A stretch of DNA of 63,469 nucleotides, filler included, from Collodictyon triciliatum (Eukaryota), in NCBI GenBank assembly GCA_043381765.1. It is 33 parts of 33 records of this genome, joined end to end, with 100 filler letters (N's around TTAATTAATTAA, not from the genome) between each part and the next. Parts side by side here need not be neighbours in the genome. Positions count along the whole stretch, not along the records: positions 34,725 to 36,550 come from JBHJMP010010124.1; 32 more parts are not named here. The stretch is one strand, 5' to 3'. A program made the position numbers and the translations under genes. The notes below the pieces were generated by a model. The model was not told the origin of the DNA, ran no database searches, and saw only the letters and a list, made by a program, of their open reading frames with translations. Of the stretch, positions 7,735 through 39,814 are shown piece by piece; position 1 is the stretch's first letter; every line of letters starts with the position of its first letter.

Positions 7735-8001
7735 GATTACGTGTATTTAGTCAGCCCCAATGTTCAGTCGTCAAGTTTTGCTAGTGGTATCGGCGGCAAT
7801 GGCATCATCGCAAAAATACCGCTGAGTGTTGGTTCACGGTACTCTAGCTACTTTGAGGTGAATGACAATATCTTGGAGAATCTGATGGACTGCTCGTATA
7901 TTCCGTTCAGCTGGAATTTCAGATTGGTGGATAGGCTGGGCAATACAATTAACCAGCTTCAGGACTATTCTTTTACATTGCGGATAATTCCAGATTTTTA
8001 A
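7735..8001 (+). CDS. C-terminal part of a Polinton-like-virus minor capsid (penton) protein, 5' truncated
   Basis: DYVYLVSPN...GIIAKIPLSV...FRLVDRLGNTINQLQDYSFTLRI fits the AKIP...L.D..G..I....D.SFTL pattern of PLV/Polinton pentons; intron-less; 14 nt before the next gene. Confidence 0.65.
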   Translation, partial: DYVYLVSPNVQSSSFASGIGGNGIIAKIPLSVGSRYSSYFEVNDNILENLMDCSYIPFSWNFRLVDRLGNTINQLQDYSFTLRIIPDF

Positions 8002-8015
8002 TTCTTGGCTAATGT

Positions 8016-9566
8016 ATGGGTTTTTTCATAACAGAAGAAAAGGAACTACCGGAATTTTCCAATCAAGACGCAAACAAAGTATTAAAAGTCGATTCAAGTG
8101 GGCTTTATTTACAGTGGCTGCAGGAAACAGTAGCACCGGCTGAGCTTCCAAGTCAAACTGGGAACAGTGGCCGATTTCTAAGCACTGATGGCTCAGTACC
8201 TGCTTGGTCAACTATTTCACAAGTTCCCGGGCAAACCGCAGGAAATAATGGTCAATTTCTTACATCTAATGGCTCCAGTTCTTCGTGGGCGAGTGTTTCT
8301 CAGGTTCCAAGTCAATCATCACAAAGTGGGCGGTTTTTAACAACCAACGGTACCGCAGCAAGCTGGGCTGTTATTTCTCAAGTACCTTCAACAACAGGAA
8401 ACGATAATCGAGTGCTTGCTGTCGCTTCTGGAGGTAATGCTACTTGGACCAATAACTTAACGGTATCCAGTTCATTAGTCACAGTGCCTCATCTTCAAGT
8501 AAGTACAGGCACAGCAGCAAGCAATGGTATTTTTACATCAGGTGGAACAAATAGTGGAATCAGATGGCAGTCGGGATCAAATGTAAGAATACTTAGTAAT
8601 GGCACAACAGTGATTGATTTTTCGAATGCTAGTTCAGACCCACTTTGTTCAATAGAAGAAGCTATTGTTATGAAAAAATCTGTAAGACAACTTGTAAACA
8701 CCGTAGCTTCTTCTTTTAGTTTAGCAGTTGACAGCGCTAGTATACATCGAATAAATTTAACAGGAGCCGCAAATGATGTAACCATAACATTGACCGAGCG
8801 CGCAAATGGTACTAGATGTACATTTATTCCGTATAGAACAGCACCAACAACTCGTAAAACATTTTTAACAGTAGCCAGTTCTACTATTTTTATTCAGATA
8901 ATGCACAATCAAACCAACACACAGATTATATTTCCAAATACCTACGAAATGTTTGAAGGGGCGGTTTATCATTGTATTTATGTAGCTAGTGCTCTTACTT
9001 GGTATGTTTGGATATCCGGACTAGCAACAAATATTTCGGATCCGTTTGTAATTGGTACAACTATAGATTTTCAGGCAGCAAGTTCAGGCGCTAGAATACA
9101 AGGGTCAAATAATGGAGCAAACTCTAGTATAATTTTAATTTGTAATAACACAACAAGTTGTAATTTTACAGTTAATGATACCGAAGTTCAAAATTCGCTA
9201 CGACTATTCAAAGCGCCGCTTACCGATTTTATAATACACGACAGCGGAACGCACACTGTGAGTCGAAATTCACCAAATAAAATCGTATTGACAATACAGC
9301 AATCGGGAACTTCAAATGCAGTAATTGTATTTCCAGTAAGTACTGATGTCCCGAATGGACTAGAAATTCAAGTATTTGTCTGGAGGTTGTCAGGTAGAAC
9401 TGGAACAGGTGTTCAGCAAATCAGATTTGATTCAGCCAGTCCAACAAATAACGCCTTTGTCCTCGGGTCTAGCGGCACAGGTATCGCACTTGGAGGCACA
9501 ACGTACACTGTCACAGAAGGTACGATGTTTAAAGCTACTAATTTCCGTACAACGATAGGACGATGG
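8016..9566 (+). CDS. Viral fibre/spike-like protein, 3' truncated, intron-less
   Basis: More than 510 codons open; five ~26-aa tail-fibre-type repeats (e.g. LPSQTGNSGRFLSTDGSVPAW) then two related beta-rich S/T/N/G domains. Confidence 0.7.
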
Positions 9567-15358: not shown

Positions 15359-15745
15359 NNNNNNNNNNNNNNNNNNNNNNNNNNNNNNNNNNNNNNNNNN
15401 NNTTAATTAATTAANNNNNNNNNNNNNNNNNNNNNNNNNNNNNNNNNNNNNNNNNNNNTGTATGTATGTATGTATGTATGTATGTATGTATGTATGTATG
15501 TATGTATGTATGTATGTATGTATGTATGTATGTATGTATGTATGTATGTATGTACTCTTGAATGATGAAAACGAGTCACAAAAAGTAATTTATATGATTA
15601 TAAACTATCTAAACTACTGATAAGAAAATAAGGAGAGAAAATAAGAACTTTTTTTTAAAAAAAATCCTTCATCTGCCAGCACCTCCACCACCCTGCACAA
15701 AATTGAGAGGAATAAAATAAAAAAATCCTCCATCTCTTTCCAGAT

Positions 15746-23173: not shown

Positions 23174-24718
23174 AGTTCACAGAGCATATTAGACTCAGCA
23201 GGTGGGGTATCGGCTCTGGCATCACAAAGTTCGAAGAGAATATAAACAAATTATCGGATTGCTTCGAAAATACACAATTCTTGGACATTGAGTTAGTTTC
23301 AAAGATTCCTGATTCCGCAAGATACCATCCCATCGTGGGTATTCCAGAAAGCAACGCTCTTTTTTCAAAATTTTACAAGGAGTTTCTGGAAAAAGTAATG
23401 AATGGTGACCAAATTACCTTTGACTCTATCCAAGGGTTTACAAAACGCCTCGATAAAAATTGGTTTGAGCCACTGGTGCCAGAGCTAAACACGTTCATGA
23501 CGCGTATTTCTGAATTGGATATTGACGTCATTCTATTTAATGAATGGAGCCAAGACAGTATTGACGTTATGGCAAATTTCAAGAGCATTCTGGACTCTTG
23601 CCGACATTGTCTGCCTGAAAGTATCGCTAATGTTCCTGTAAATCTTAGGGAACTCTACAGCAATTTCCATAATCTCTACGAGCGCTCACAGAAGATTATG
23701 GGGATTATAGACACAATCAAGACTCACAAGCTAATGCAGCTACCTGCAGAAGCTGAAGAGGCAAGTAGTATAATCAGAATGTGGATAGAACTTTACCAAA
23801 AAATACCTGAAGAATCAAAGTATGCTTTGTTTCCACCACGATGTTCTCTAACACTTCGTCAAGTAGGAAGAGAATGGAAGATATGGATGAAAGATGACTT
23901 GGCTATTGAAACACAAACCATAGAGACAGAAAAGTTTAACTCCATATCTGGGGTTGTAGAGTTTTTTGGAAGTTTGCACTCTGAGAGTAAAGATGGAGAT
24001 ATTTCAGATTTAATTAATTTTTGTCGCTCCAGATTGGATGATTCAGATAATGAAAAAAAGGATTTGATCGAAAAGGCCAGAGAAGTATGGCCTGAAGTTC
24101 GTTTGATAGCTGAATATAATGGGTCCCCGGATAAGACCCTTCCCCAAATGTTCCGAGCGTGGTCGTCCTTGACAAAAATGTCACAAAATCCTAAACTAAA
24201 CCTAAGTAGCGAGGAACTAAATGTTCTGGGTGAACTTTTGAGAGGGGTGTTTAATGCAGAAGCAAAGAAAGCCATGGATAGCATGAAACAAATAAAATCG
24301 GTGACAATTCTTGATTATCTCTACATAATCATCAGACTTCGTGCAACTCATTTTATTTAAATTTTCTTTAGCTTCAGTCGCTTTATTTGCTCTATTATTC
24401 ACCAAAGATAATTTAATAAATTAGACATGCAACTTTTGCATCGATATGCAATATGATGCCGAAAAGGGTGCACCTCTTCGAGTCAAACGCAAGGAAGAAT
24501 ACTCATCCGAAAAAGAGAGCCTGCCCATATCTGATATTCATCAACTTCGTCAGCTTTACGAAAAAGTGAACCTAATCATTAGCGCCGGAACAAAAGTTCA
24601 TAAGTCGGAGGATTCTGGAGACCAGGAAGCAGAGAACTTTATCAGAGTACTGGAACCACTTTTTGAATACACGATCATTCTGGTAGATTTGAAGAAAGAT
24701 GGCCATCCTCATTACCAG
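23174..24718 (+). CDS. Internal fragment of a large helical protein, possibly RNF213-like
   Basis: 359-aa open exon plus a second exon ending FIRVLEPLFEYTIILVDLKKDGHPHYQ|gt. The L..L...GHP.Y motif recalls the region before the AAA+ domain of RNF213-like proteins (inference). Confidence 0.4.
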
Positions 24719-24738
24719 GTTTCACTTTGCTTTATGAT

Positions 24739-24814
24739 TTTATTTTTTATTCTTCTTTTCAATTTTGTGCAGGATGGTGAAGATGTTGGCTTTGGTTCGC
24801 TAGCCATCGTTTGC
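24739..24814 (-). mobile_element. 76-bp 5'-truncated LINE copy with a perfect 16-bp target-site duplication, inside an intron
   Basis: Matches the 3' end of the LINE at ~47965-48040; CACTTTGCTTTATGAT flanks it at 24723-24738 and 24815-24830; A-rich tail. Confidence 0.9.
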
Positions 24815-25101
24815 CACTTTGCTTTATGATATTCTCAATAGATAGATAATACCCTTATATGCAAATTCAGTTTTATGTGTTTGATGTAGCAGATATTGGA
24901 TGAAATAAGTTCAAATATGGAGTGATTAAACTTCGCATGAATAGGCCCACAGCGAAGTGATGGAAGGGAATATGAACCCACACTATATCGAAAACAAGAT
25001 TNNNNNNNNNNNNNNNNNNNNNNNNNNNNNNNNNNNNNNNNNNNNTTAATTAATTAANNNNNNNNNNNNNNNNNNNNNNNNNNNNNNNNNNNNNNNNNNN
25101 N

Positions 25102-30871: not shown

Positions 30872-30965
30872 CAATTTTTTCTGTTGTAAATTTAATTCCT
30901 AGGTCACGATAATTAGTTATTGTAAAAACATAATCTCCAGTCTCGAATTCTTGAACACTTGTCAT
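30872..30965 (-). CDS. Start of an unidentified ORF on the viral contig (MTSVQEFETGDYVFTITNYRDLGIKFTTEKI...), running into the gap
   Basis: ATG at 30965, open to the contig end, same strand as the upstream capsid gene. Confidence 0.4.
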
Positions 30966-31037
30966 TTTGCAGGGGTTTTTAATATTATTATCTATACAAT
31001 TGTTTTTAAGTAGGTAATTACAAAAGTATTATTTAAA

Positions 31038-31242
31038 TTCACACCTTCACACAATCACACCATTGCAAAAGGTCCGTTGTAGGTTGGGCCTGAAATTTTA
31101 TTTTTATTTTTTTATTTTTTATATATTAACTTCAAAAAATGGTGTGAATGGTGTGAATGGTGTGAATGGTGTGATTTTAAAGTAAAAACCATAGCAAATA
31201 TTATAGTAACCGACAATAACAAACCACACCATTCACACCATT
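31038..31242. repeat. Iteron-like 9-bp repeat cluster in both orientations downstream of the capsid gene
   Basis: TGGTGTGAA x3 plus TGGTGTGA at 31140-31174; reverse-complement copies at 31038-31064 (three, imperfect) and 31225-31242 (two); AT-rich spacers. Confidence 0.8.
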
Positions 31243-31427
31243 TTTTTTTATAAAAAAATTAAACAGAATGAAGCAAATCCTTTTCACTTTTAAATTCGAC
31301 GGTACCCCCGCAACACGAACTCCGTTTCAAATGATCGACGGTATATTTCCACACACGCTCTATAACTAACACACAAGTCATAAGTAATGATATTATCGTA
31401 ATAGGTTCCATTACTTATATAAATATT

Positions 31428-32698
31428 TTATTCTACTCTGAAAGTCTGTTGGTTGGATTGAATTTCAAGGACGGCATCGTACAAACTTGCAATAATAACC
31501 TGGTAGTCCTTTCCAACAGCACCACTAAACTCTAGCCGCAAACTCATCAAGCCGCTGCCGGATGACTGGATGTCTGATCCGACGATCTCCCCCTCAACTG
31601 CATCGAGGACTTTGCGCAGATTGAAGCCAAGCATGAATTCAGAACATCCTTGTGCGGCTTCACGTAAACAACGAATTACATTCGTAGCGTCAGCATCAGC
31701 AAGAGCATTACCTGCTCCATCTTGATAGCTGTTGTAATTAGTATTTTCAAATCTAACAGCATCAGTTCCATATACTGCGCTAATAGGAACACCATTTTCA
31801 GTTCTAGCTGTTATTTCACAACTACTTGTTAAATTAAAAGTAGTTCCATATTTTGGTCCTCTGAATTCAGTTCCATCAAATCCAAACGGCCCAGTGTATT
31901 CCCCACGAACAAAAGTAAGACCTAGTGCCTTTTGTAATTCAATAAATACCTGACTTGCATCATTTTCACAATCCATAGGTTGAAGAGGGTAATAAAATGA
32001 GCCCAGTTGTAGCTGGGCAGTTTTGAGGTTTGTTGGAAAATGTTTTCTGTCACGGCCTGCTACTGTAAATTTATTTTGCTCGGCACTGTCGAAAAAAGCA
32101 ACATAAACAGCGTTTAATGACTTTACTGTATCATTAATATTATACACAATATTTGAAGTTGTTGTCGCTGGCAATGAGTAAAGTGAAGTCCTCCACGTCT
32201 TATAGGGAATTTGCAGGGGAATTCCTCTTTGAATACTTGACTGCAATTGTTGGTGATATTCAGGAGCCATTCTCACCAAATCATAAGACATATAACAATT
32301 AGATAAAACATATGAAGCTGTAGCGTCTGGAAGTCCAATAACAAGTCTTGAGTTAGTTGCTTCAACATCACTATGATAAGCTTGCATACACTGAGATGCT
32401 GGTGCGAGCTCTATTTCAATCTGAAAGGCAGTAACACTATCGATTAAACTTGTAGAAATCAAACCCGAATACTGACTTATACCAGATAATCGCAAAGGAA
32501 TACAATAATTTTTCTTTTTTAATGGTGAATTCAACGTTTGTTCTGATCTATGGTACCGAATTCTTTCATATGCAGAACCAATACCCATCGTAGCTTTGCC
32601 TACTGTATTATTAAAATCATCTGAAACATAATTCATAAACATAGAGTCCAAATAATTATATCTTTGTATATCTTCGAGTAAAAAGGACGTTCCCTTTC
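31428..32698 (-). CDS. Polinton-like-virus major capsid protein (double jelly-roll), paralogue A, 5' truncated
   Basis: Intron-less and open to the gap (LLEDIQRYNYLDSMF...); colinear motifs with 34746-36524 such as IPLRLSG...IEIELAPASQC, YVLSNC, LQIPYKTW, SLNAVY, QLQLGSFYYPLQPM, ELQKALG, FMLGFNL, YDAVLEI. Confidence 0.8.
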
Positions 32699-32929
32699 NN
32701 NNNNNNNNNNNNNNNNNNNNNNNNNNNNNNNNNNNNNNNNNNTTAATTAATTAANNNNNNNNNNNNNNNNNNNNNNNNNNNNNNNNNNNNNNNNNNNNAA
32801 ACAAACAAACAAACAAACAAACAAACAAACAAACAAACAAACAAACAAACAAACAAACAAACAAACAAACAAATAAATAAACAAACAAACAAACAAATAA
32901 ACAAGTAAATAAAAGCGATGGAAATCTAC

Positions 32930-34372
32930 CCAACCAGCACACTTGCAAATTTCAATAAAGTTTCTTCCGAGGGAACTCCGAGCTTTCATCATCGTTGTGA
33001 CGCTTCCACGCCCTCCTATGTACTAGTCAAATATTTCAGCCAAATGTATTGACGAATATTGTTGTTTGTTCGCTGGAATTCTTCAATATATAATTGGATG
33101 TATTGTTTCGAGTTGTTTGATTATTTTTTTTTAAAAAAAAAACAACAAATAATATCATCACGGAGGTAGGACAGGTTGGACAATTACATCAGCATGGTAT
33201 TTTGCATTTATCCATGCCAGTGCAGATAGCAGATAGGGGCGGTGGGGAAAAGAAACAACTAATTACAACTGTCGAGAAAAAAAACGAGTGTGTAAATTTA
33301 ACATTTAGAATGTAAGAACCTCATTTGTATGGGCCAGAATAGTCTCGCCAGGAGCAATCCATATGATTCTCTCGTTCGGAGAAATATTGTCCAGCTTAAT
33401 ACCTGTAGGAATGCAATAGGGGAGGAGCAAGTTAAAACAAAGTAAATTAGATGGCTAGGTTCGAGTAAAATTAGTGGATTGATTAGACTCATGAACTCTT
33501 GGCTGAAGCAGACAAGTCGAACAAGAAATGCTACCTGTCCTTTTAGACCAGTCAGCGCTTAGTTCTGCCTCCTGAGGATTGCCCCAGACTCGCCTCACCA
33601 TTTCTTCACTATAGGGATTATATATTCCCTTGTTTTTTTTTTTAAAAAAAAAGGGAATATCAACATATGTGAAACGGAATAGGATTACTTGGAAAAACGA
33701 TAATGATAATGATAATGATAATGGTAATGATAATGATAATAGTAATGGTAATGATAATGATAATGGTAATGGTAATGATAATGATAAAAGGATTAATAGG
33801 AAAATCATGATGATAAAGGCAATTAAATAATAGAGAATAACAACATTCAATTGATATTTCATGTTCAAGAATAGATATTGGCATGTATTTTCACGATATA
33901 TGGTATAATAAGAAAGATGTGAATCCATCCCAGCACATCCTTTGAGAGCGACGAATCATTATTGGCTGCTAACTGAAAAGCTCAAAAAATCTTGAAACAA
34001 TTTTTACTCACAAGACCTGGCTCGGGAGTGCTTTCTCGGTAGAAAAATGGACCCAGTGTTACATCGTACGACGACGTGCTGAGGTGTTCTCTCGAAAAAG
34101 GCTCGATTACAACTTTGCCTGTACCCCAGTAATGATTAATACTTGGGGATAGACTCATAACAAATCACGCTACAGTGTGCTATTCTTTTACTTCATCCAT
34201 CAGAAAAGGGCATGTCCTTTGACATTCTGCCTACTCAGAAGTCCCCATAGGCAAATAAAGAAGGAAAAAACTACTTAAATTCTTGGTTTCATGGCAGTGT
34301 ACCTTGTTCCATGGAGCGAAGGATTCCTTTGTCACTCAGCAACGAAAAATGAGGTTCAGCTTCTTGGGCCAT
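32930..34372 (-). CDS. dcd: dCTP deaminase (trimeric dUTPase-like family), 3' end missing; exons ~34372-34303, 34118-34012, 33628-33535, 33402-33320, 33022-32930
   Basis: Spliced translation FSLLSDKGILRSMEQGKVVIEPFSREHLSTSSYDVTLG...IWIAPGETILAHTNEYIGGRGSVTTMMKARSSLGRNFIEICKCAGW contains LSD..I, SYDVTLG, PGE..LA.T.E and ARSSLGR motifs. Confidence 0.85.
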
Positions 34373-34745
34373 TATTTGTCTCTTTTTCCCCTCGCTTCGT
34401 GATTAATGTGTAGACGCGTGCCCAAAATGATTGGATGTAAGTCCAACAAAATAGCTCATCACCAGAAAAAAAAGAACGGAAAAGTACATGAATTTGATTC
34501 AGTCATTTTTTTTTGTTTTTTGTTTTTTTGTTTTGTTTTTGTTTTGTTTTGTTTTGTTTTGTTTTGTTTTGTTTTGTTTTGTTTTGTTTTGTTTTGTTTT
34601 GTTTTGTTTTGTTTTGTTTTGTTTNNNNNNNNNNNNNNNNNNNNNNNNNNNNNNNNNNNNNNNNNNNNTTAATTAATTAANNNNNNNNNNNNNNNNNNNN
34701 NNNNNNNNNNNNNNNNNNNNNNNNTTTTGTTAATGAAAAAATAAT

Positions 34746-36524
34746 TTAGTAAAGTACCTGGGCATTGTCTTTGCCAATATCCAACACACGAGTGTGCTCG
34801 ATGATGACCCAGCAGGTATAGTTATCAACTGGTGCTACATTTGAAAGTGCTGCTGCAGCTGATTTTGCACTTGTATTTATTCCTCCTGCTGTAACACGAT
34901 GAGCTTCTGGGCAAGAATTTCCAAACTGAAGTCCGACCTGGACGATACCACTGTTGCTTGACGCATTATAACCACTGAGCTCAAACTCGTCACTATAATC
35001 TGATCGGGTCATACTCCAACCTAATGCGAAATATGTGGGAGTTTTCCAATAGATCTCTTCACATTCTAATGGTGAAGCTCCAAAATTGGCTGGCATTCTA
35101 TTGGAATCATTAGCGGCGGCAACCGCAGCAGTTTGAAACATGTTTGCCATTACTGCTTTATTCTGAGCATAATATATTCCAGCACCTGATACAGGGCAAA
35201 CTGTAGGTACATCAGCGCCAGTTACTATTACATTTCTTCCACAAAGTTGTCCAAAATTCACCTGACCAAGCATTTCAGCACTTGTGTTATATCCCAGCGC
35301 TTTCATTAAATAATTAAGTGCCTCAGGTTGTTGGCACCCTGCTTGTCCATGAAGTCCAGATGTTAAATATCCAGTTGCAGGAGCAGCAACACCTGATAAA
35401 CTTGCATTAGTATCTGGATAAGTTAAATAATTTGGACCATTTAACAAAATTGGGACACTTGGCAGTACTTTGCCATTTACTGTAAGTCTAGCTTGTGCAA
35501 GTCCCTCAATGGCGTGCATTCGGTCAGTACCAAGATAAGATAATGTGCCTTGCTCACAATTTCTAGTAAATATACAATATATAGCGTTAATGTTTGAGTA
35601 CTGAATTGATATATTTTGTGTAATCCACCCAGATGAATTTTTTGGAATAGGAAATTGCGTCATAAAATAAGTCTCAATTGGAATCTGCAAATTGTTGGAA
35701 ACCAAGTATTGGGAAAGAGCATTATTATAACTAGGTTCTGTTTGAATATAATTAATATTCATTCGTATATTTGAAAGTGTATAATTCAGAGTTGTTGCAG
35801 TAATACCAGTAAAAGCAAAATAGTTTCTTACAGTGTTTGCTGCAACGCTAACTGATCCATGTGTAAAACACTCACTAGCTGGTGCCAACCAAATACGAAT
35901 TTCAAGAGAATTGGGACCCAGTAAGTAAGCAGGAAGCAATGTTTTAATATTCATCAACCCCAAGTAACGAAGTGGAAATCCTATTTGAATAGTGTTTGAT
36001 TGAGTTGCATTATTAGCAAGTCCACTTAACAATAATTTGGATTTTTCTAAAATAGATTGACCCAACCCCATTCCTCCTGACATAAGATTGACCCAATTCT
36101 GATTATTACACCAGTTATGTTTAAAAGTCTCAAGGTAACTGTAATTATCTATACGCTCAAGCTCACTGCCATTGAGATAGACGGCAATACGATAAATAAA
36201 ACTTTCATAACTCTCACAGGGAGCAAGAATTGGAAGTTCAACACCCGCATCTATATCTATTTGTGTTCTTTTAAGATTATTATATGAGTCTTCATTAGAC
36301 AACCCCTTAACAGTCAAATCCGCTATGATATGGGCTGAGTCCATTTGAATAGACCACTCGTTGTCTATAGGCACACGAAACACGATCTGCGGCCCTGACG
36401 AAAAATTGGCAGTCTGCTCAGTTCCATTACTGGGTAAAACCTGTCTTTGTTGTTTTTCAAGGATAGTTTTTTTCTTGGATGAAATATTTCTGAATTGCAG
36501 TTCTTCGGGTAGTGAGTCCATCAT
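34746..36524 (-). CDS. Polinton-like-virus major capsid protein (double jelly-roll), paralogue B, complete 592 aa
   Basis: Intron-less ORF filling the contig; N-terminal SLPEELQF...VLPSNG...FSSGPQIVFRVP...MDSAHIIADL, FIYRIAVYLNGSELERIDNYSYL, LTVNGKVLPSVPI, C-terminal EHTRVLDI; typical PLV MCP layout. Confidence 0.85.
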   Translation of the reverse strand: MMDSLPEELQFRNISSKKKTILEKQQRQVLPSNGTEQTANFSSGPQIVFRVPIDNEWSIQMDSAHIIADLTVKGLSNEDSYNNLKRTQIDIDAGVELPILAPCESYESFIYRIAVYLNGSELERIDNYSYLETFKHNWCNNQNWVNLMSGGMGLGQSILEKSKLLLSGLANNATQSNTIQIGFPLRYLGLMNIKTLLPAYLLGPNSLEIRIWLAPASECFTHGSVSVAANTVRNYFAFTGITATTLNYTLSNIRMNINYIQTEPSYNNALSQYLVSNNLQIPIETYFMTQFPIPKNSSGWITQNISIQYSNINAIYCIFTRNCEQGTLSYLGTDRMHAIEGLAQARLTVNGKVLPSVPILLNGPNYLTYPDTNASLSGVAAPATGYLTSGLHGQAGCQQPEALNYLMKALGYNTSAEMLGQVNFGQLCGRNVIVTGADVPTVCPVSGAGIYYAQNKAVMANMFQTAAVAAANDSNRMPANFGASPLECEEIYWKTPTYFALGWSMTRSDYSDEFELSGYNASSNSGIVQVGLQFGNSCPEAHRVTAGGINTSAKSAAAALSNVAPVDNYTCWVIIEHTRVLDIGKDNAQVLY

Positions 36525-38296
36525 ATTTTTAAAAAGAAAATAATTTTCACNNNNNNNNNNNNNNNNNNNNNNNNNNNNNNNNNNNNNNNNNNNNTTAATT
36601 AATTAANNNNNNNNNNNNNNNNNNNNNNNNNNNNNNNNNNNNNNNNNNNNTATTTGTTTTTATTTGTTTTTATTTGTTTTTATTTGTTTTTATTTGTTTT
36701 TATTTGTTTTTATTTGTTTTTATTTGTTTTTATTTGTTTTTATTTGTTTATTTGTTTATTTGTTTATTTGTTTATTTATTCGCTCAGGATTTTTTTCCTA
36801 TTTTTTCGTTCAGGATATAAATGAACTCTCCAACGGAGCAGGATCGCGACAAGGATCGCGCCTCGAGTTCGGCACCCGTGAGAGAAATGCCGCTCTTTGG
36901 TGGCCTGCAAGAAAGCAGCGACGATCAGGACGAGGACCCTGGAAACATTGACGGAAATGAAAGCAGCAGCAACAGTGATAGCGGCAGCGAGGACGTAAAA
37001 GATTGCGATAATCCCAAGCCCCGCGATCACGCAACAGACTCGTCAACTGTTTTCAACCCAGACTGCGTCCCTCAAACACGCCCCCACAACACAGGTCTGC
37101 TTCGATGGTGTGGATTTAGCGGATGGAATGATATAACCACAGAAATCGACATTACAAGACAACATAAAAGTATCAGCACATGGCCACGTATTTTCTGTCT
37201 TGCTGAACAATCTAACCTCTGACTAACATACACCACAAAAACAAAACAAAAAAAAAAAGGTAACGACTCAGTATTCCAAGATGACACCCAGCAGTATAAA
37301 AGAGGGGAAACCCCACTCGCGGGCATCCAGTCGGCTGGTCACCCACAACCAGATGGTGTAATGGACGATTCACATGCTTTGGACGTTCAGCTACCAAGAG
37401 TGCTTTCTCCGCGCGACCAGATTAGCCTAGACTCAAGCCAAGGTTAAGGCTCTTCTGTATACATCCTCGTGTAACGAAATACGATTTAACATTAACACAT
37501 TGCAAAAAAAAAAAAAAGTTGATAGTTATTTGAAAAAATACTGGTTTAGTAGAAAGTGGATATCGTAATTTAGATATGTAGTCATTTATTTATTTCAATG
37601 AAAATGAACAGCAAGAAGACAGCCCATCCATCTTTTATCTTACACATAATGAATAGAATTGCTTTGTCGTTTTTAAAATAATTCCGTGCTGAAAATCTAC
37701 CCGCTCGCATATATACCAAACTTTGTTTATCTATCTATGAATATACATCGGCCGCATTAACTCCACATTGGTTTTTCACATGGATGTATTTCTTTTTAAT
37801 CATTCTCCAAAATTTATGGTAAGCTCTATTTTTTAAGTTTTTCTGTCATCAAATGCTCTCGAATGTAGGCATTTATAATGTACAAATGAATCATGTCAAA
37901 AAAAAAACTTAGGAACCTATCGAAAATGTTTTACAATTCTCGGGACGGATTTGTGTATAAATACAGGGTTCCTCAACCACCCTTTTGCGTGTGAATATCC
38001 CATCAGCGACCCAAAGTAATCATTCTCTGATATGTTCATTGTTTATCTATTATCTTGTTAAAAAAGTATTGTTTTGTCCTTTGCCCAAAATCGTTTGGGT
38101 GTATTTTATTCTGTCATTGTCATTATACGTAAAGGGTTATTCTCTTAAATTTAAAATATGGCGCAGGGAGAGCCTAGCAATCGCAAAGCGTTGTATGAAT
38201 CCGGTTCCGAAGAGTGATATAAGGTTTGTTGACATATTGATAATTAATTTCATCGAATATTTTGTTGTTTTATATTTTGTATTATGTTTTTCGTTT

Positions 38297-38696: not shown

Positions 38697-39814
38697 CGGC
38701 AGCACATTCCGCTTTGCATCAGTCTCCCTTGAGACAATATCAAGCCCAGATTCCACAAACTCTGCAAGGCTATGACGAGGTGAATGCAGGACACGCAACA
38801 CCAAGGTTGGCGATATCATACATTCTTTCTTCTCTACTATTCATGTTAATGTAATCGGAATAAAAATAAATCGAAATGCGAGAATGGTACTGTTGGTCAT
38901 CGGAACATCATCGTAGTGCATGTGCCGTCAAGGTCATCTCTGAGACTAACGAAAAGCACTCTTTTCACGGGCAGGAATCACCCCGGGGCACTTATTCAGC
39001 TTTCAAACGACCCCAGCCAGAGAAACATGTCAGTCCCTCTTCGAAAGACTCGCTCCTACGAAGCCGCCCGCACAATCACTTCGCACGTGACAAACTCCAT
39101 CATGAACCCACCCAGAGTTGCAATGACCCCGTCTTCCATACCCACAGACCCTTCATCAATTCATGGAACAGAAAAAAAACACATGTCGATTACTCCAAGA
39201 CACTTGTCCAGTCCTTCTCCCCAACCTTTCAGCTCCACGTTAGTGTCGGTTCCACCAAGCAGACAGCAGACTGTTCCGGTCGCGAATGGGAACCAAACGC
39301 AGCCAACGCAAATTCCCTCACACCCATCATTTTCATCCATGGCAGCCATGTCCTCATCACCCCGCCCTAACAGCTTCTATATACTCAACTCCAGGTCGTG
39401 ATTGTGTCCTGCCGATGTGATTTGGTCTTTCCCTTTCCCTTTCCCTTTCCCTTTCCCTTTCCCTTTCCCTTTCCCTTTNNNNNNNNNNNNNNNNNNNNNN
39501 NNNNNNNNNNNNNNNNNNNNNNNNNNNNNNNNNNNNNNNNNNNNNNNNNNNNNNNNNNNNNNNNNNNNNNNNNNNNNNNNNNNNNNNNNNNNNNNNNNNN
39601 NNNNNNNNNNNNNNNNNNNNNNNNNNNNNNNNNNNNNNNNNNNNNNNNNNNNNNNNNNNNNNNNNNNNNNNNNATTGCTGTTATAGATGTTCCTGCAACA
39701 TTTATCGATATCAAATATGAAACACTTCATTTAATGTAAAGTATATACACCACCCCACAATTTAATTTTAAAAGAGAAATATAATATCACTAGACAAGCT
39801 ATGAAACCGAACCT

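Follow-up and report, generated by a model that had tools for sequence, protein, structure and literature searches.

A double jelly-roll major capsid gene, very probably of a Polinton-like virus, on an unplaced contig of the Collodictyon triciliatum assembly

Polinton-like viruses (PLVs), a group of small double-stranded DNA viruses with genomes of about 14-40 kb that are circular or carry terminal inverted repeats (TIRs), number in the thousands in recent surveys. Three core genes are ascribed to PLVs, namely those for the major capsid protein (MCP), the penton and the A32 ATPase, and TIRs are the usual mark of a complete genome (PMC7805220). The definition of virophages rests on profiles for a virophage-type MCP, ATPase and protease, with an adenain-like protease as a required marker, and PLVs are described as lacking sequence similarity to these profiles (PMC9952930). 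The name PLV spans several deep lineages, some of which carry capsid modules similar to those of the nucleocytoplasmic large DNA viruses (NCLDVs) (10.64898/2026.06.19.733378). Here we describe an open reading frame (ORF) located in a 63,469-nt stretch of the C. triciliatum assembly GCA_043381765.1, hereafter referred to as the window, which an initial annotation had taken for the complete and intact MCP gene of an endogenous PLV. The ORF encodes an MCP of the double jelly-roll (DJR) type, and very probably derives from a PLV, in the broad sense of the name, belonging to a clade widespread in freshwater. The features of the gene and of the contig on which it resides are as follows.

34746..36524, minus strand: complete MCP gene of 592 codons (ATG-to-TAA ORF, fold model and ratio of nonsynonymous to synonymous substitution rates, dN/dS)
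Within 34746..36524, minus strand: first barrel, at about residues 19-279, and second barrel, at about residues 280-592, of the MCP (model and fold matches)
35340..35429, minus strand: largest clade-specific Ala/Gly/Thr-rich insertion, codons 366-395 (30 aa), lacking in at least 75% of the distant-clade sequences
35109..35135, minus strand: second clade-specific insertion, codons 464-472 (QTAAVAAAN), likewise lacking in at least 75% of the distant-clade sequences
36535..36546, minus strand: AAATTATTTTCT element, the TTATTTTCT core of which begins 19 nt before the ATG (conserved position in relatives)
34725..36550, no strand: unplaced contig of 1826 bp carrying the MCP gene (linker map of 33 segments; linker sequence read)
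34625-34724 and 36551-36650: artificial 100-nt linkers bounding the MCP contig (linker map)

The frame runs from ATG to TAA without any stop or intron, as the initial annotation had stated, and, with a length of 1779 nt, takes up 97% of its 1826-bp contig. At the GC content of this contig (37.7%), stop codons are expected about once in every 15 codons, and by our own arithmetic the probability that a frame of 592 codons stays open by chance is approximately 1e-18. Homologous proteins start with either MDSLPEEL or MMDSLPEEL, and the true start is therefore the ATG at 36524 or the one at 36521. The gene was said to be free of microsatellites, and no tandem repeats were found inside the ORF.

No Pfam family matched the protein at E <= 1, and searches of PHROGs (best E 0.32) and of PDB sequences (all E >= 1.4) returned noise. 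Homologues are nevertheless available. Twenty-seven, ranging from 94 to 29% identity and all unnamed or labelled 'hypothetical', were retrieved from a collection of 5.8 billion clusters, and cover the query completely in 24 of the 27 cases, by 99% in one and by 74% in another. A search of 1.84 billion proteins gave 27 representatives of the MCP family at E <= 1e-3. The AlphaFold2 model, built on a 29-row alignment, has a mean predicted local distance difference test score (pLDDT) of 76.7 and a predicted template modelling score (pTM) of 0.83, and is beta-rich, as had been proposed. In Foldseek comparisons with the PDB, the MCP of Singapore grouper iridovirus (SGIV) ranks at the top (E 5.7e-15), and the matches down to E 1e-10 comprise capsid proteins of SGIV, Paramecium bursaria chlorella virus 1 (PBCV-1), African swine fever virus (ASFV), faustovirus, Sputnik, Emiliania huxleyi virus 201 (EhV-201) and mavirus. 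Comparisons with BFVD yielded a top match at E 2.1e-19, followed by capsids of NCLDVs, adintovirus, adomavirus, virophages and the Tetraselmis virus TVS1; in a text search of the literature, no mention of the UniProt accessions of the unnamed best BFVD matches was met.

VIA alignments of the model to 48,161 PDB representative chains gave the same picture. The first 15 ranks are all occupied by DJR capsid or scaffold proteins (Z 20.1-8.6), headed by PBCV-1 (Z 20.1, 357 residues aligned at a root-mean-square deviation of 2.9) and including faustovirus (18.5), ASFV p72 (17.7), the orf virus scaffold (17.2), Sputnik (15.8, 3j26_A), mavirus (14.4, 6g45_A), Sulfolobus turreted icosahedral virus (12.4), PM2 (12.2), PRD1 (11.9), hexon (9.2) and the Flavobacterium phage FLiP (8.6). 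These alignments span MCP residues ~19-592. From rank 16 onward (Z <= 7.9) the matches are unrelated proteins aligned over about 100 residues, most of them within residues ~280-592, and the second barrel is therefore marked there. Model, Foldseek and VIA all point to DJR capsids. The initial annotation had called the gene a major capsid gene and had proposed AlphaFold and Foldseek as the check for a DJR fold; with viral capsids, and not cellular proteins, as best matches, the modelled fold of the MCP can be regarded as established and of the Bamfordvirae type.

Alanine, glycine and threonine make up 28% of the C-terminal half of the protein vs 17% of the N-terminal half, in agreement with the Ala/Gly/Thr insertions that had been noted in the former. 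Residues 366-395, 464-472 and 561-566 are missing in at least 75% of the 8 distant-clade sequences, and are hence clade-specific. Within the close clade, the least conserved blocks are 361-400, 421-480 and 541-560, which show an identity to the query of 0.24-0.55 (for instance 0.36 at 361-380 and 0.54 at 381-400), while most other blocks of the C-terminal half range from ~0.7 to 1.0. The variable blocks, all located in the second barrel, largely overlap stretches of low pLDDT in the model, which scores 56-59 in insertion 366-395 and below 50 at residues 465-473. Codons 366-395 may thus correspond to a surface loop, and, by likeness to other DJR capsids, it is reasonable to suppose that the insertions form outward-facing tower loops. 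The earlier view of lineage-specific surface loops stands as far as clade specificity and location in variable, low-confidence loops are concerned; their outward orientation is an inference only.

The gene shows no sign of decay. Comparisons with the homologues in the metagenome contigs L001, L003 and L004 gave dN/dS values of 0.077, 0.196 and 0.089, respectively, at dS values (1.2-2.5) that are near saturation; dS against L005 is saturated. In a quick maximum-likelihood tree (IQ-TREE, 55 rows, leaving out P0051-P0069 and seven of the proteins P0001-P0050 that are shorter than 420 aa), the MCP belongs to a fully supported (100%) clade of 5, in which its own terminal branch measures 0.017 and its nearest relative is P0001 (94% identity). 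Purifying selection (dN/dS 0.08-0.20) and the short terminal branch argue for a functional MCP gene, in keeping with the suggestion that the virus is recent or still functional.

Fifteen metagenome contigs (L001-L015) encode relatives of the MCP, ranging from 83 to 33% identity. In these loci, gene order is compact and conserved. The MCP gene (13 loci) is directly preceded by a gene encoding ~140 aa (8 loci); after it come an oppositely oriented gene for a 130-170-aa protein (9 loci), a gene for a protein of 291-330 aa (8 loci) and then a large gene. Every one of the 13 relative loci examined contains exactly one MCP-family ORF, and 8 of them also contain the 291-330-aa neighbour, which folds as a penton. 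The model of the 291-aa protein (8-row alignment, pLDDT 70.1, pTM 0.57) matches the pentons of PBCV-1 (Z 14.2) and mavirus (11.4, 6g41_A), EhV-201 (11.3), the adenovirus penton base (10.9) and the Sputnik penton (10.0, 3j26_N), with the next match at 6.8, and its BFVD matches are TVS1, the mavirus minor capsid and adomavirus LO5. Pfam searches identified a Pox_A32 packaging ATPase in four loci (L006, L009, L010 and L015; E 6e-14 to 3e-13), a DUF5906 (D5-type) helicase domain in a 736-aa protein of L006 and an Endonuclease VII domain in a 1262-aa protein of L009. In the L009 contig (15,603 bases, GC content of 24%), positions 1-69 and 15486-15554 form inverted repeats of 69 nt that are 91% complementary. 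Because these TIRs lie near both ends, L009 is probably a complete linear genome; its MCP is 35% identical to that of the window.

Among 31 neighbour proteins from 7 loci of the relatives, no adenain-type protease was found at E <= 0.01, and no match to protein-primed DNA polymerase B (pPolB) was obtained among the 31 proteins scanned. Of the 13 ORFs in L009 that reach 80 aa, the scan covered 11, leaving out the MCP and one 86-aa ORF. A PDB sequence search with the 1262-aa and 357-aa proteins of L009 gave nothing informative, and an Atlas search with its 399-aa protein gave no usable match. Three families conserved in the capsid modules have no recognisable function: the ~140-aa proteins encoded upstream of the MCP gene (8 loci, e.g. 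L001:2-415), the 130-170-aa proteins encoded on the opposite strand (9 loci, e.g. L001:2251-2763) and the 274-399-aa proteins adjoining the ATPase (3 loci, e.g. L009:6762-7961). Neither a penton nor an A32 ATPase gene was found in the window, in which the MCP contig extends 21-26 nt past the ORF.

Within the 26 nt that precede the MCP ATG on its contig lies the AAATTATTTTCT element, which is located 19-20 nt before the MCP ATG in 8 of the 10 relatives with upstream sequence. It is present in L012 and L015, the proteins of which are only 33% identical to the query, and is lacking in L009 and L010. The element also precedes three other genes, with distances to the ATG of 25 nt in L009:5552-5929, 22 nt in L014:1911-2375 and, by our own reading of the printed context, ~20 nt for an ATG at about position 44 of the upstream gene of L012. 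Across 65.6 kb of loci we counted 12 copies of the 9-mer core, where 4.4 are expected and 10 were the maximum in 200 shuffles. The conserved position suggests that AAATTATTTTCT may be a family-specific promoter or initiator signal. A literal text search of the literature with the element returned, among the matches listed, only unrelated primer and sequence listings and no virus promoter.

The 26 nt upstream of the MCP ORF are collinear with the viral flanks of the relatives, and the 21 nt following the stop codon are collinear with L004 and L005. Both edges of the contig are therefore viral, the viral genome runs beyond the contig, and no host DNA is present on it. The window as a whole consists of 33 contigs, almost perfectly sorted by length from 1834 down to 1820 bp, and joined by 32 identical 100-nt spacers of the form N44-TTAATTAATTAA-N44, a six-frame-stop linker. 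It is a chain of unplaced, physically unlinked contigs, and no stretch of chromosome. Spliced genes, microsatellites, a leucine-rich repeat (LRR) gene and a retrotransposon fragment all map to other contigs, unlinked to the MCP ORF. Since the contigs are unlinked, the spliced genes and microsatellites are uninformative on the neighbourhood of the ORF, and the image of an intron-less ORF set among heavily spliced host genes, on which the initial annotation relied, has to be given up. More generally, findings that rely on adjacency across linkers are unsafe, and caution is due with any six-frame-stop-linker chain of unplaced contigs, as neighbouring "genes" in it are uninformative about each other. 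By the same token, viral fragments found in an unplaced-contig bin should not be labelled endogenous without junction evidence.

Some of the other contigs deserve mention. The contig at 38576-40400 contains an internal run of 195 N (39479-39673), which is a scaffold gap, unlike the 100-nt linkers, and adjoins a (GA/TC)-type repeat translating as poly-KG or poly-FP. A spliced dCTP-deaminase-like gene, the exons of which were read by eye, maps to 32799-34624 on the minus strand; (GTTT)n and (AAAAC)n microsatellites border it, and it contains a 24-nt minisatellite. The presence of this gene indicates that the bulk of the assembly is eukaryotic. An intron-less open frame of 394 aa, 5'-truncated by the contig edge, is found at 23176-24357 on the plus strand of contig 23174-25001. 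Pfam gave no match and the 5.8 billion clusters no homologue, and the frame is by these searches an orphan.

Three of the 33 contigs are PLV fragments, and at least two MCP lineages are represented among them. The genes carried by the two additional fragments are as follows.

31428..32698, minus strand: second, divergent MCP gene, 5'-truncated by the contig edge (contig 30872-32698; homology)
8016..9566, plus strand: fibre/spike-like gene, cut at its 3' end by the contig edge (contig 7735-9566; homology to a gene of the relatives)

An open frame of 422 aa is left of the second MCP gene (31431-32696, minus strand). It is 29% identical to the first MCP over 178 aa (E 5e-18), and falls into a separate deep clade of the tree, its best relative being P0047 (540 aa, E 1.6e-150). 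The same contig features, after this gene, a 460-nt spacer with AATGGTGTG/TTCACACC repeats and a small ORF that starts at ~30967 on the minus strand and is cut off by the contig end. A reading of the two MCP genes as parts of one multi-MCP ("Trimcap"-like) virus finds no support, as each of the 13 loci, among which the P0047 clade is not represented, has a single MCP-family ORF and the two genes lie on unlinked contigs. The fibre-like gene is homologous to the penton-adjoining gene of L001, L002 and L013 (E 4e-22 and 3.3e-26) and has 62 homologues, the best of which, P0070 (533 aa), is 94% identical. Its product carries repeated G.FL.T.G....W..ISQVP motifs, and its N-terminal repeats are common to many longer proteins encoded on large contigs; some of these have precomputed Pfam families of presumed phage tail-fibre repeats. 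Because the best homologues of both the fibre-like protein and the MCP are 94% identical, the two contigs probably stem from one virus.

Sequencing runs were searched for the MCP stretch, and all or part of it was found in 20 rows from 13 studies. Most of these are freshwater, drinking-water, aquatic or sediment metagenomes; runs X5-X8 carry no organism label. The best shares of the stretch are 0.67 (run X1), 0.54 and 0.50; gaps in its coverage by X1, X15 and X16 are uninformative. X1 contains four pieces of 222, 580, 175 and 151 nt with 0 differences, at depths of 2.8-4.1. Run X2 contains a relative ~96-97% identical to the MCP stretch, with 28 differences in 831 nt at a word depth of 216 and another contig at 183.5, and X2 contigs extend past both ends of the window contig. 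Although word depth does not equal copy number, a single-copy insertion in a eukaryotic genome would hardly reach a depth of ~200x when the run comprises 2329 million letters, and at least the X2 relative is therefore an abundant virus, probably a free or replicating one. Two metatranscriptomes from two studies contain pieces 97-98.5% identical, one of 476 nt with 7 differences and a second with 423 nt aligned of a 430-nt record and 12 differences, which are a weak hint of MCP expression.

The relatives carry the PLV core genes for MCP, penton and A32 ATPase in small genomes, L009 is bounded by TIRs, and no match to virophage or NCLDV capsid profiles is seen; on these grounds we adopt the PLV label in its broad sense, which assigns the virus to no particular PLV group, and the name given by the initial annotation is retained. 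Alternatively, the gene could belong to a virophage (Maveriviricetes), a small NCLDV-like virus (Mriyavirus/Zora/Zephyr-type) or a giant virus. It is true that, among solved structures, NCLDV capsids match best (PBCV-1, Z 20.1), that 11-24% of the members of the nearest Atlas clusters carry Capsid_N or Capsid_NCLDV, that one Atlas cluster (rank 17) carries Sputnik MCP families, and that 'PLVs' of 15-45 kb with an NCLDV-related capsid module have been described (10.64898/2026.06.19.733378). However, Capsid_NCLDV, Capsid_N, Sputnik_MCP_1st and MCP_V20_C find no match at E <= 0.01 in any of the 29 family members, the adenain-type protease is missing among the 31 neighbour proteins, L009 is a TIR-bounded genome of 15.6 kb, and the Z-scores fall off gradually across NCLDV, virophage and phage DJR proteins and so assign no lineage, making such an origin improbable. 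Still much less credible is a cellular or domesticated capsid gene of the host, for which nothing speaks beyond the presence of the ORF in a eukaryotic genome assembly; the strong fold matches are all viral capsids, the homologues sit in compact viral gene modules, the flanks are viral and introns are absent. Several points weigh against our assignment to a PLV and the picture built on it. Sequence profiles provide no link to a named capsid family, whether through Pfam (0 of 29 members), PHROGs or PDB sequences, and IMG/VR, scanned with the alignment and two close homologues, yielded no MCP relative. ATPase, penton and TIR evidence all comes from relatives, with the MCP of L009 only 35% identical, and the rve match of L009 (22.8 bits) lies below the Pfam cut-off of 32.6. 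RNA libraries may carry over DNA, which bears on the metatranscriptome pieces, and the trimers, the loop exposure and the promoter function of AAATTATTTTCT are inferred.

The initial annotation had called this PLV endogenous and had referred to integration into protist genomes; neither endogeny nor a protist host is borne out, given a contig that is devoid of host DNA, though too short to speak against a junction farther out, edges that are viral-collinear on both sides and carrier runs that are water metagenomes. We would give about even odds to a free or replicating PLV that infects the sequenced organism or another protist of a non-axenic culture or field sample, and was co-sequenced without being part of the host genome. 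Water metagenomes of 13 studies contain the same or a near-identical sequence, with high depth in X2, and pieces of it turn up in metatranscriptomes; the MCP contig is among the smallest unplaced contigs and viral to both edges; two unrelated MCP lineages in one bin resemble an environmental virus mixture; and PLVs are reported to be enriched more than 100-fold in the virus-size fraction of lakes (PMC7805220). Yet a well-covered virus should give one contig of 15-25 kb, not pieces of 1.8 kb, a cosmopolitan freshwater host bearing the element would equally explain the metagenome matches, and X1, the best DNA carrier (share 0.67), could be related to the source sample. Integration in a chromosome of the sequenced eukaryote, recent and intact, with a sequence fragmented through its multiple copies, has in our view a somewhat lower than even chance. 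Sixteen integrated PLVs, some with TIRs and target-site duplications of 5-7 bp, have been reported (PMC7805220), as has large-scale integration in protists (PMC10120064). Repeated insertions would look just like 3 PLV-derived contigs of 33 with at least two MCP lineages, the contig breaks at gene borders beside conserved intergenic motifs as expected with several related copies, and L009 has a weak rve-like integrase. Integration is opposed by the lack of a single host base on the contig, of which the 26 nt upstream and 21 nt downstream are viral-collinear, by carriers that are water, sediment and aquatic metagenomes plus four unlabelled runs, none from a named organism, and by the ~96-97% relative at ~200x word depth in X2. 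The short terminal branch and purifying selection fit an actively transmitted virus at least as well. Many small viral fragments fit repeated integrations and equally a mixed viral population at low coverage.

In the picture that we propose for this PLV, the hexon-type MCP would assemble as trimers into pseudo-hexagonal capsomers, and these would build an icosahedral shell that penton pentamers close, with the hypervariable, Ala/Gly/Thr-rich loops of the second barrel facing outward. The A32 ATPase would package the viral DNA, and AAATTATTTTCT, 19 nt before the ATG, may drive (late) transcription. The MCP contig is a fragment of a viral genome that continues past both edges, contig 7735-9566 being probably part of the same genome. 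Tentatively, contigs 34725-36550 and 7735-9566 may represent a PLV integrated in, or persistently infecting, the sequenced eukaryote, from a clade with TIR genomes of ~15 kb and with AAATTATTTTCT as a promoter-like element at a fixed distance of 19-20 nt before structural genes, perhaps read by a helper giant virus or a dedicated host factor. If true, this would be the first host link for a cosmopolitan clade of freshwater PLVs. Should reads show a host junction, or replication in culture, the lifestyle becomes testable as lytic, virophage-like or integrated.

Compared with known systems, the MCP of the window and the proteins of its relatives share folds with several groups. NCLDV MCPs (PBCV-1 Vp54, ASFV p72 and faustovirus) give the highest structural Z-scores (20.1-17.7), but are only 8-12% identical and belong to genomes larger than 100 kb, vs ~15 kb in the relatives; Pfam Capsid_NCLDV and Capsid_N match 0 of 29 family members at E <= 0.01. 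Virophages (Sputnik V20 and mavirus; Maveriviricetes) have the same MCP fold, the same penton fold in the neighbouring gene and a similar genome size. They differ in that a cysteine protease was not detected beside the relatives, and Sputnik_MCP_1st and MCP_V20_C match 0 of 29 members at E <= 0.01, these being Pfam models and not the hidden Markov models of the ICTV study group. Maverick/Polinton elements proper are characterised by pPolB together with an RVE integrase; among the 31 neighbour proteins scanned in the relatives, pPolB is not matched and the rve match of L009 stays below the cut-off (22.8 vs 32.6 bits).

Fold matches are also found in Tetraselmis viridis virus S1 (TVS1/TsV-type), a PLV. 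Its proteins M4QM72 and M4QQD3 are BFVD fold matches of the MCP, and M4QZG2 is the match of the penton-like neighbour at rank 2 (E 4.1e-10, TM 0.62). Identity in the fold alignments is only 10-15%, and no sequence-level homology was detected. TSV is mentioned in the preprint 10.64898/2026.06.19.733378. Three peptide words specific to the clade are absent from the supplements of PMC7805220, PMC12220804 and PMC10120064, files that may hold no sequences. With the PLVs at large (groups of Yutin 2015; Bellas & Sommaruga 2021, PMC7805220; Aquintoviricetes and allied groups, 10.64898/2026.06.19.733378), the window protein shares the DJR MCP, and its relatives share a penton and an A32-type ATPase adjoining the MCP, an SF3/D5-type helicase as replication gene, a TIR genome of 15.6 kb, AT-rich and compact genomes and a habitat in freshwater metagenomes. 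The MCP gene thus very probably adds one more PLV capsid.

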